DNA of 26,369 bases, taken from positions 1-26,369 of the IMG/VR virus record IMGVR_UViG_2660238444_000003. One strand, given 5' to 3'. The notes under the pieces are model-generated. The model saw only the letters and a list, made by a program, of their open reading frames with translations, was not told the origin of the DNA and did not search any database. Positions within the stretch are counted from its first letter, which is position 1. Each line of letters starts with the position of its first letter. Position numbers and translations under genes: made by a program. Below, in pieces: positions 5,381 through 5,850 of the stretch. The stretch comes from a virus (taxonomy: Duplodnaviria > Heunggongvirae > Uroviricota > Caudoviricetes).

Positions 5381-5411
5381 AAAAAGCCCAGTTGACTAGG
5401 CTGGGCTTTTT
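5381..5411. terminator. Bidirectional intrinsic terminator-like hairpin
   Basis: aagcccag (5384..5391) pairs with ctgggctt (5401..5408), 9-nt loop, A-run upstream and T-run downstream. Confidence 0.6.
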
Positions 5412-5711
5412 AAAAGGAAACAGAGTTTGCGGCTCTGTTCCTGAGCCATAAGTATCTGGCGACTGAATTAAGATTAACCGAATGTACTGGATTCATCAAG
5501 AAACGTTGAGTGGTCATACCAGGTAATAATGACCATTTACTAAACATCGTTGTTCTCAAAGAAGATTTAAGTCCAGGTTTTTGGTGACTCTAAAACCTTA
5601 CCTTAACTCGAAATCGTGCCGTAAGTATCTGGCGACTACAGATATTGCAACTGCAAAGGCAAGCCCAAAGGTATTTGCAGCTAGGCGCGATAAAACTAAG
5701 TGAGGCCTGTT

Positions 5712-5795
5712 ATGGTTAACTTACTGTTCAAAATCGTGCCGCCGATGTTCGCGATTATCAAAGCGATCATTGAGTACGTAAACCAGCGTCCATAA
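5712..5795 (+). CDS. Putative small hydrophobic peptide (27 aa), speculative
   Basis: ATG preceded by GTGAGG 7 nt upstream; MVNLLFKIVPPMFAIIKAIIEYVNQRP; followed by hairpin 5809..5833. Below the ORF-track size cut-off. Confidence 0.25.
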   Translation: MVNLLFKIVPPMFAIIKAIIEYVNQRP

Positions 5796-5808
5796 CGCTA
5801 GTTGCTAC

Positions 5809-5833
5809 AGGCCCCATCAAGAGCATGGGGCCT
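5809..5833. terminator. Hairpin between convergent transcription units (possible terminator)
   Basis: aggcccca (5809..5816) pairs with tggggcct (5826..5833); weak T-run downstream on +; lies just past the stop of the 5851..6477 gene on -. Confidence 0.4.
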
Positions 5834-5850
5834 CTTTATCGTACTATTGC

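Follow-up and report, generated by a model that had tools for sequence, protein, structure and literature searches.

The contig IMGVR_UViG_2660238444_000003 of IMG/VR (Duplodnaviria; Heunggongvirae; Uroviricota; Caudoviricetes) was analyzed as one stretch of 26,369 nucleotides (nt), hereafter the window. This report concerns its spacer at positions 5381-5850, which probably constitutes a self-contained type I toxin-antitoxin (TA) module. By analogy with established systems, a minus-strand small RNA (sRNA) would repress a divergent plus-strand messenger RNA (mRNA) encoding a hydrophobic peptide of 27 amino acids (aa), and the two would function as a toxin-antitoxin pair. Both the toxicity of the peptide and its repression are presumed from that analogy. 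The two genes and their signals, the RNA-RNA pairing and its orientation, the structure of the 5' untranslated region (UTR), and the coding constraint on the small open reading frame (ORF) were all obtained computationally. An initial annotation of the window had likened the locus to small membrane-peptide toxin loci, a comparison that gains support from the antisense sRNA gene and from the conservation of the hydrophobic ORF as a coding sequence. The same annotation reported no antisense complementarity, which was wrong, since reading the two copies of a direct repeat from opposite strands makes them complementary.

The comparative evidence comes from related modules in other replicons. A near-invariant hairpin of the 5' UTR, termed P3, was used as a search pattern and retrieved 2 genome contigs, 17 metagenome contigs, and 28 viral contigs. 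The comparative set comprises 56 copies (loci, numbered with the prefix L) and 32 distinct module sequences. Within the window, the module consists of the following features, where D1 and D3 denote two direct repeats and P1 to P3 the helices of the 5' UTR.

5379-5413, both strands: bidirectional intrinsic terminator with arms 5379-5391 and 5401-5413 (13 nt, 100% complementary)
5381-5464, minus strand: candidate antitoxin sRNA of about 84 nt, with recognition segment, internal hairpin, and terminator with U-run; start predicted
5415-5442, minus strand: internal hairpin of the sRNA, GGAACAGAGCCGCAAACUCUGUUUCC, a predicted fold
5445-5464, minus strand: D1 copy 1, whose reverse complement AGUCGCCAGAUACUUAUGGC is the sRNA 5' end and target-recognition segment
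5471-5499, minus strand: sRNA promoter, -35 TTGATG (5499-5494), 17-nt spacer, -10 TAATCT (5476-5471)
5573-5842, plus strand: candidate toxin mRNA of about 270 nt; 5' end predicted and uncertain, 3' end at the terminator
5575-5598, plus strand: stem-loop near the mRNA 5' end (AGGUUUU...AAAACCU); all modules conserve the flanking GGTTTTTGGTGA
5613-5620, plus strand: 5' arm of the closing stem P1, AUCGUGCC, inside the first D3 copy and partly inside the sRNA target
5618-5637, plus strand: D1 copy 2, the sRNA target site in the 5' UTR, ending 75 nt upstream of the AUG
5624-5646, plus strand: target hairpin P2, stem 5624-5631/5639-5646, 7-nt loop GCGACUA
5651-5680, plus strand: hairpin P3 (CUGCAAA...UUUGCAG), near-invariant
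5684-5691, plus strand: 3' arm of P1, GGCGCGAU, also complementary to the D3 copy inside the ORF
5700-5705, plus strand: Shine-Dalgarno (SD) sequence GUGAGG, with predicted local pairing to codons 4-5 (CUUACU) in all folds
5712-5795, plus strand: 27-aa hydrophobic ORF MVNLLFKIVPPMFAIIKAIIEYVNQRP, candidate toxin of the B-type, conserved in all modules
5731-5741, plus strand: D3 copy 2, at codons K-I-V-P of the ORF, which could pair alternatively with 5684-5691
5809-5842, plus strand: mRNA terminator hairpin AGGCCCCAU/AUGGGGCCU (hairpin 5809-5833) with a short U-rich tail (CTTTAT)

Pairing of a minus-strand sRNA with a divergent mRNA

The argument begins with the direct repeat D1. The initial annotation had described it as a 16-nt repeat, TAAGTATCTGGCGACT, and this sequence does occur exactly twice in the 26.4-kb window (5449-5464 and 5622-5637), where chance would yield 0.11 matches even with up to three mismatches. 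The repeat is in fact 20 nt long, with 19/20 identity between 5445-5464 and 5618-5637. Transcription reads the two D1 copies from opposite strands, which makes the repeat an antisense complementarity: copy 1 supplies the 5' end of the sRNA and copy 2 lies in the 5' UTR of the mRNA, 75-94 nt upstream of the AUG. The computed cognate duplex comprises 20 bp at -38.6 kcal/mol.

Modules with enough upstream sequence carry both D1 copies, and the two are always of one same type. At least seven types occur among the 32 distinct modules, namely TAAGTATCTGGCGACT, AATGTATCTGGCGACT, TTGTTAACCGGCGAC, AATGTATCTGGCAGC, AATGTATCCGGYGACT, AATGTRTCTGGCTACA, and TAAAACACTGGCGAC. Within the 19-nt core (window positions 5618-5636), five kinds of difference separate copy 1 from copy 2, and all of them are A to G or C to T changes. 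When the minus-strand transcript of copy 1 is paired with the plus-strand transcript of copy 2, these differences become G·U wobbles; in the reverse arrangement they become A·C mismatches. True mismatches between the copies are confined to positions outside the core. This restriction to wobbles in a single orientation therefore fixes both the function of D1 and the strands involved. Hence, the minus-strand sRNA and the plus-strand mRNA are predicted with high confidence to pair as RNAs through D1.

A search of the opposite strand for a complementary sRNA, proposed in the initial annotation, leads to the candidate transcribed from 5464 to 5381, with a conserved promoter, hairpins, and a terminator. 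Its promoter reaches a position weight matrix score of 10.3, the best in the region, and the pattern TTGAnG-17-TAAnnT is kept in 20/20 distinct promoter sequences, with variable spacers. The predicted start at about 5464 (AGUCGCC...) coincides with the last base of repeat copy 1. Pairs of the internal hairpin are kept through two-sided changes, and those of the terminator hairpin (5411-5381) are likewise conserved through compensatory changes. The bidirectional terminator had been placed at 5381-5411 from the start; its inverted repeat was confirmed with slightly wider arms, a terminator scan found it on the minus strand, and T-runs stand on both of its flanks. Distant homologs retain a long U-run only on the minus strand (GGGTTTTTT), the plus strand carrying a weak TCTTTC.

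A covariance model of the sRNA (R1) was built from 19 distinct sRNA sequences and scores 96.8 bits in the window. It gives exactly one match, on the strand opposite the UTR, in 51/53 loci; the other two are contigs cut off beside the search pattern. Since R1 was built from these same loci, the result documents co-occurrence and not independent detection. At Rfam gathering thresholds, one transfer RNA (tRNA) is the sole match in the window. Below threshold, the sRNA strand matches AgrB at 27.6 bits (gathering score 40; E = 0.036 in a 1.3-kb search) and RNAI at 23-34 bits (gathering score 47). OrzO-P reaches 34.2 bits in L006 and 26.4 bits in L004 against a gathering score of 60, with no match in the window. 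These sub-threshold matches point to strand and architecture, not to membership.

Further small RNA-like elements were seen near the sRNA gene. At window 5294-5411 (plus strand), a possible second small RNA gene converges on the antitoxin sRNA gene, and the two would use one bidirectional terminator. The RNA of this second gene would span 5325-5411, behind a promoter-like TTGCAT-17-TATCTT (score 9.4) whose -10/start region has exactly the same 10-mer, ATCTTAATTC, as the antitoxin promoter of the opposite strand. Nine variants (89-98% identity) all keep the 5' part, AATTCGCAAGACACTGATGTTAC, unchanged while their flanks vary, and the sRNA model scores the element at 22 bits. A search of the window for its target gave none above background. 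The element is absent from plasmid-type modules. In the plasmid-type modules L003-L008, another conserved plus-strand element lies upstream of the sRNA terminator, at about 100-350 nt (L006 1170-1300 is one example). It comprises a promoter-like TTGTAC-16-TAGAAT and then a hairpin, CATATAG...CTATATG, and leads into the same terminator; its sequence shows no relation to window 5294-5380.

The candidate toxin mRNA and its peptides

The mRNA is predicted to begin with a structured 5' UTR of about 135 nt. The best promoter candidate is TTTACT-19-GAAGAT (score 4.6), whose -10 element lies just upstream of the conserved stem-loop at 5575-5598, and this position is conserved. At the other end, every module has an equivalent GC-rich hairpin and T-run after its last small ORF. 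No LexA box of the form CTGT-N8-ACAG with up to two mismatches occurs in 5420-5700, and SOS control of the candidate toxin was rejected on that ground.

Comparison of the modules supports the UTR structure. Across the structure, 94% of cells are paired, versus 27-50% when the partners are slid, and 0/500 shuffles reach the covariation score. In closing stem P1 (helix 1), 93% of cells are paired, and changes occur on one side as well as on both. Two-sided changes are also found in P2, for example GTTAAC/GTTAAC in L005 and CACTG/CAGTG in L022. P3 gives no covariation information because it served as the search pattern. The sRNA target starts within the 3' end of the P1 5' arm and continues through the 5' arm and the loop of P2; this loop offers sequence complementary to the extreme 5' end of the sRNA.

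The second repeat, D3, is only partly explained. Its 11-nt form, AAATCGTGCCG, occurs at 5611-5621 and 5731-5741 as originally described, and it extends to 14 nt with 13/14 identity. Taken alone it is near chance: 3 matches are found with one mismatch allowed, and 7/100 shuffles reach that number. The upstream copy is conserved because it contains the P1 5' arm. In the minimum free energy fold of the full window mRNA, GGCGCGAU pairs instead with the copy inside the ORF, enclosing the SD and the AUG. ORFs of the A-type, a paralogous peptide type described below, have a different sequence at the same codons (CUCGCGC), and it too is complementary to GGCGCGAU. In a synonymous-recoding test, complementarity to the ORF copy exceeds that of 91-97% of recodings in 8/15 modules and does not in 5 others. 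An alternative pairing of GGCGCGAU with the ORF copy is thus possible but unproven. With recoding support in about half of the modules and an SD accessibility that does not change in silico (see below), a refolding switch is kept as a possibility.

The small ORF, its GTGAGG SD, and the downstream hairpin are all present as first annotated. In all modules the ORF is preceded by an SD at 6-8 nt upstream of the ATG (GTG in two variants). A longer 31-aa frame starting at GTG is not conserved and is lost in L018 and L022. The peptides fall into two paralogous types of equal length that align without gaps: the B-type (MVNLLFKIVPPMFAIIKAIIEYVNQRP), which is the sole type in the window, and the A-type (e.g., MLLLFLKLAHPVAVIIMTLLGYWKDR). 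Modules hold A only, B only, or A then B on one transcript. The tandem arrangement was seen in the plasmid-borne L003, L005, L006, L007, L009, L013, L021, and L023 (e.g., L006 1641-1831), with a separate SD for each ORF (AAGTAAGG and AAGGAGG) and one sRNA target upstream of the pair. The window resembles a version without the A ORF, with the B ORF directly behind the UTR.

The ratio of non-synonymous to synonymous substitution rates (dN/dS), computed pairwise, is about 0.14 for the B-type at a dS of about 1.06 and about 0.13 for the A-type at a dS of about 0.85. Variable sites of the B-type by codon position number 19/9/24. Low dN/dS at a dS near 1 indicates that the small ORFs are real coding genes. 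The best 19-residue Kyte-Doolittle window of the window peptide scores 1.85, in a range from 1.66 (LdrA) to 2.56 (DinQ), so its hydropathy is within the range of DinQ, TisB, ShoB, and LdrA. The peptide is strongly amphipathic, with a hydrophobic moment of 1.51.

Comparison of the peptide with toxin families, another follow-up suggested at the outset, gave no significant match in Pfam, in NCBIfam, or by hhalign against DinQ, TisB, and LdrA. The Pfam and NCBIfam scans covered seven peptide variants at E values up to 10 and returned nothing. By exact look-up in a collection of 15 billion proteins, only the window peptide and one A-type peptide are present, and the sole name given is 'hypothetical protein' (a single record from a metagenome-assembled genome, MAG).

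The spacer was said to hold no long gene, and this stands. The neighboring 80-aa ORF at 5140-5382 (plus strand) was rejected as a gene, since it is broken by stops or frameshifts in 6/9 variants (L010, L044, L024, L045, L015, and L029). One GenBank plasmid (AP024133.2) lists it as coding for a hypothetical protein.

Occurrence, proposed mechanism, and rival readings

In the window, the spacer is flanked on one side by a humD-like S24-peptidase gene (4660-5049, minus strand; Pfam Peptidase_S24) and on the other by a 208-aa gene without assigned function (5851-6477, minus strand), which is convergent to the small ORF. A perfect LexA box, CTGTATACACATACAG, was observed at 5068-5083, 19 nt upstream of the humD-like gene start. 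The predicted SOS-controlled unit here is this S24 peptidase gene, not the small ORF. The 470 bp recur near-unchanged in 115 records from 114/5426 complete Escherichia coli genomes (about 2%). Plasmids of about 100-125 kb account for 105 of these places and chromosomes for the other 10, and RefSeq lists 0 annotated features under the match in those 115 records. The carrier plasmids in E. coli are pECOH89/SSU5-like phage-plasmids, and phage Cyrano holds the same region at 100% identity.

A sensitive search extended the family through partial matches of 65-84% identity in unrelated plasmids of Kosakonia, Citrobacter, Klebsiella, and Enterobacter. Each plasmid-type module again occupies an unannotated spacer of 0.5-0.9 kb. 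Overall, the modules are found in Escherichia, Citrobacter, Klebsiella, Enterobacter, and Kosakonia, on phage-plasmids of about 85-125 kb, on conjugative IncF-type plasmids, and in prophages, in spacers that are otherwise unrelated. Some adjoin repA or repB, as in L003 and L007. One contig, L010 (JAEWTL010000044.1), is labelled 'MAG: Bacillota bacterium', and its module shares about 89% identity with window 5050-5470; the probable explanation is mis-binning of an enterobacterial phage-plasmid contig.

Elsewhere in the window, a tRNA gene (2727-2799) adjoins the integrase gene. The integrase frame (2817-4043, minus strand) contains a masked run (X) around 3600-3700 between copies of the duplicated peptide RRHRLNWEMS, which speaks for masking or mis-assembly and not for a true insertion. 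At 20225-20325 (plus strand), just after a 207-aa ORF (19561-20184), a strong terminator, AAAGCCCTGAG...CTCGGGGCTTTTT, stands about 65 nt beyond a promoter-like TTGACT-17-TAAATT. This arrangement resembles a lambdoid late promoter with a short terminated leader and gives a weak match to the sRNA model (19.2 bits).

The proposed mechanism assembles these elements by analogy. We infer that both genes are transcribed. A weak plus-strand promoter would yield the mRNA of about 270 nt, whose 27-codon ORF encodes a single-helix hydrophobic peptide, and a strong divergent promoter would yield the sRNA of about 84 nt (5464 to 5381). Pairing would most likely nucleate where the free sRNA 5' end (AGUCGCC) meets the 7-nt P2 loop, and would extend from there along the 5' arms of P2 and P1. 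The duplex may block ribosome loading from an upstream standby region, create a substrate for RNase III, or both, by analogy with tisB/IstR-1, zorO/OrzO, and dinQ/AgrB. While the sRNA is present, the peptide would not be made. If the element or synthesis of the sRNA were lost, the sRNA would decay and translation of the stable mRNA would set in, with damage to the inner membrane by the peptide. The carrier phage-plasmid, plasmid, or prophage would thereby be stabilized. The spread of the module over such elements points to a role in maintenance, through post-segregational killing, or in abortive infection.

A broader version of this scheme is offered tentatively, and as a whole we find it doubtful. 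One sRNA would control an mRNA with one or two paralogous toxin ORFs (A, B, or A+B), and targets would have diversified into at least seven poorly cross-reacting types so that co-resident elements do not cross-protect. The 11-nt repeat would act as a refolding device in which GGCGCGAU (5684-5691) pairs with either 5613-5620 or the ORF copy at 5732-5740. Binding of the sRNA would shift it to the ORF copy and lock the translation start shut.

Several observations weigh against a functional TA pair. Both RNAs are known from sequence alone. No convincing sigma-70 promoter was found for the mRNA, whose candidate is weak and poorly defined; the mRNA 5' end is therefore a guess. When the target was blocked in silico in 24 distinct mRNAs, the predicted accessibility of the SD and AUG was unchanged, so the route from pairing to a translation block is not evident from thermodynamic folding. 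The window peptide has a grand average of hydropathy (GRAVY) of 0.86, is less hydrophobic than DinQ or TisB, and carries K7, K17, and E21. In addition, gene conversion could in principle aid the co-variation of two nearby direct repeats, but it would not explain the one-directional wobble pattern of the D1 copies.

Three other explanations were considered. The evidence for pairing and coding would apply equally if the peptide were non-toxic, an sRNA-regulated small membrane protein acting, for example, in superinfection exclusion, in transporter or sensor modulation, or as a lysis-timing helper, and not part of an addiction or abortive-infection module. The moderate hydrophobicity, charges, and strong amphipathicity of the window peptide suit such a role, as does the lack of a match to known toxin families. 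Nonetheless, we consider this unlikely, as the module combines several traits that are typical of type I TA systems and that an ordinary small protein would not require: the sRNA promoter is strong and that of the mRNA weak, the UTR is long and structured and holds a sequestered SD, the cassette stands alone between terminators and has spread beside rep genes in unrelated plasmids, and paralogous peptides occur in tandem. Control of replication or copy number by a CopA- or RNAI-like RNA, with the ORF as leader peptide of a rep or other downstream gene, would fit the position beside repA or repB in L003 and L007 and the sub-threshold RNAI matches (23-34 bits versus 47). This is highly improbable. 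The ORF is directly followed by its own terminator, the next gene in the window is convergent on the opposite strand, and neighboring genes differ in every context. Unlike in CopA/CopT or RNAI/RNAII, the sRNA does not overlap its target, and strong purifying selection on the peptide would be unusual for a mere coupling leader.

The initial annotation had itself raised a further alternative, in which the repeats are a degenerate attachment (att) site or an insertion remnant. Extended to include a recent local duplication, with the ORF as a chance frame, this account finds some support in the near-chance statistics of the 11-nt repeat and in the missing RefSeq annotation. It has almost no likelihood left, because the comparative data refute it. 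Co-variation of the D1 copies through at least seven types with wobble-only differences excludes the att or insertion variants, and compensatory changes in the RNA structures, dN/dS of about 0.14 at a dS of about 1, and promoter hexamers conserved around variable spacers speak equally against debris.

A type I TA module of this distribution would be of broader relevance. Type I pairs with a separate divergent antitoxin RNA (tisB, dinQ, zor, and shoB) are known from a handful of families, narrow in distribution and mostly chromosomal. The cassette would add a clearly mobile family, carried in E. coli mostly by SSU5/pECOH89-like phage-plasmids but also by prophages and by plasmids of Citrobacter, Klebsiella, Enterobacter, and Kosakonia, and invisible to current annotation. 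A maintenance or anti-phage function would be plausible for phage-plasmids, which often carry resistance genes. Moreover, the natural recognition variants would provide ready compensatory mutants for studies of how an antisense contact of 19 bp, situated well upstream of the start codon, would shut off translation.

Comparison with known systems

The divergent, non-overlapping layout defines the class of ShoB/OhsC, TisB/IstR-1, Zor/Orz, and DinQ/AgrB (PMC8594479). Here, the predicted starts of the sRNA (about 5464, minus strand) and mRNA (about 5573, plus strand) show the same arrangement, without overlap and within less than about 300 nt. The generic features of type I systems are also present, namely a hydrophobic ORF of under 60 aa with a predicted membrane helix and an adjacent sRNA gene complementary to the mRNA. 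The dinQ, ldr, tisB, and shoB loci of strain K-12 were compared by BLASTN, covariance model, and hhalign, with weak, non-significant resemblance only. Literature searches for type I TA systems of phage-plasmids or SSU5 and for the peptide strings, which did not cover the supplementary tables of Fozo et al. 2010, returned no description.

The shoB/ohsC locus has the same genetic layout (PMC8594479), and its toxin is a hydrophobic peptide of 26 aa; however, the sRNA has no Rfam OhsC match, and an informal look noted no similarity to the ShoB peptide. The zorO-orzO/zorP-orzP loci share a divergent sRNA, pairing over about 18-20 nt with a long 5' UTR, sequence-specific cognate pairs, and tandem toxin duplication. 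An extract of PMC5397157 gives the zorO 5' UTR as 174 nt. In contrast to the duplication of whole toxin-sRNA units in zor/orz, the ORF is here duplicated inside one mRNA under one sRNA. In a comparison made at the level of the sRNA, RF02083 (OrzO-P) matches stay below the gathering score of 60.

The tisB/istR-1 pair resembles the module in its divergent, non-overlapping sRNA and its short amphipathic hydrophobic peptide. It also shares a target far upstream of a sequestered ribosome-binding site (75-94 nt here); for tisB, an extract of PMC7708055 describes a standby site about 100 nt upstream. Differences include the absence of an Rfam IstR match, an R1 score of 10.2 bits for IstR-1, and the lack of LexA control here. 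The peptide has no Pfam TisB_toxin match and a non-significant hhalign probability of 14.8% against TisB, and the use of a standby site is proposed by analogy only.

Resemblance to cis-encoded systems is looser. The tail of the A-type peptide (..LKLAHPVAVIIMTLLGYWKDR) recalls that of Ldr (..DLAAPILAGIITAAIVSWWRNRK), with an early proline in the helix and an aromatic, basic C-terminus. Yet, the hhalign probability against LdrA is 17.9%, Pfam Ldr_toxin and Fst_toxin give no match at E values up to 10, and the cis overlap of Rdl with the ldr mRNA has no counterpart here, where sRNA and target do not overlap. Likeness to hok/sok of plasmid R1 extends to the presumed role and to a small terminator-bounded cassette on enterobacterial plasmids or phage-plasmids with a structured toxin mRNA and a strong antisense promoter. 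The peptide, however, is half the size (27 versus about 50 aa) and has no Pfam HOK_GEF match, and there is no overlapping mok-like frame. Sok, moreover, is cis-encoded and overlaps its target, and the predicted folds here contain no 5'-3' fold-back pairing of the hok kind.

The closest resemblance is to dinQ/agrAB. Matching features are a 27-aa toxin and an sRNA gene 5' of the toxin gene, divergent and non-overlapping, with about 250 nt from sRNA start to ORF start here and about 275 nt for agrA-dinQ. The complementarity is likewise visible as a direct repeat in the DNA. AgrB has a comparable 5' antisense segment, internal hairpin, and terminator, and 13/15 nt of the hairpin match (GAGTTTGCGGCTCTG versus GAGTTGGTGGCTCTG). 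Alternative structures of the dinQ mRNA are documented in an extract of PMC5066626. Unlike dinQ/agrAB, the module has no LexA box, one sRNA gene in place of two, and a location on mobile elements instead of a fixed chromosomal site. Similarity in sequence is low: the two loci do not align significantly by BLASTN (E of 1.2 or worse), the peptide has an hhalign probability of 0.3% against DinQ and no Pfam or NCBIfam match, RF02891 (AgrB) stays at the sub-threshold score given above, and R1 scores both AgrA and AgrB at 17.7 bits. With no Pfam, NCBIfam, or Rfam family reached at threshold, the module is best described as a new family of a known kind of system.

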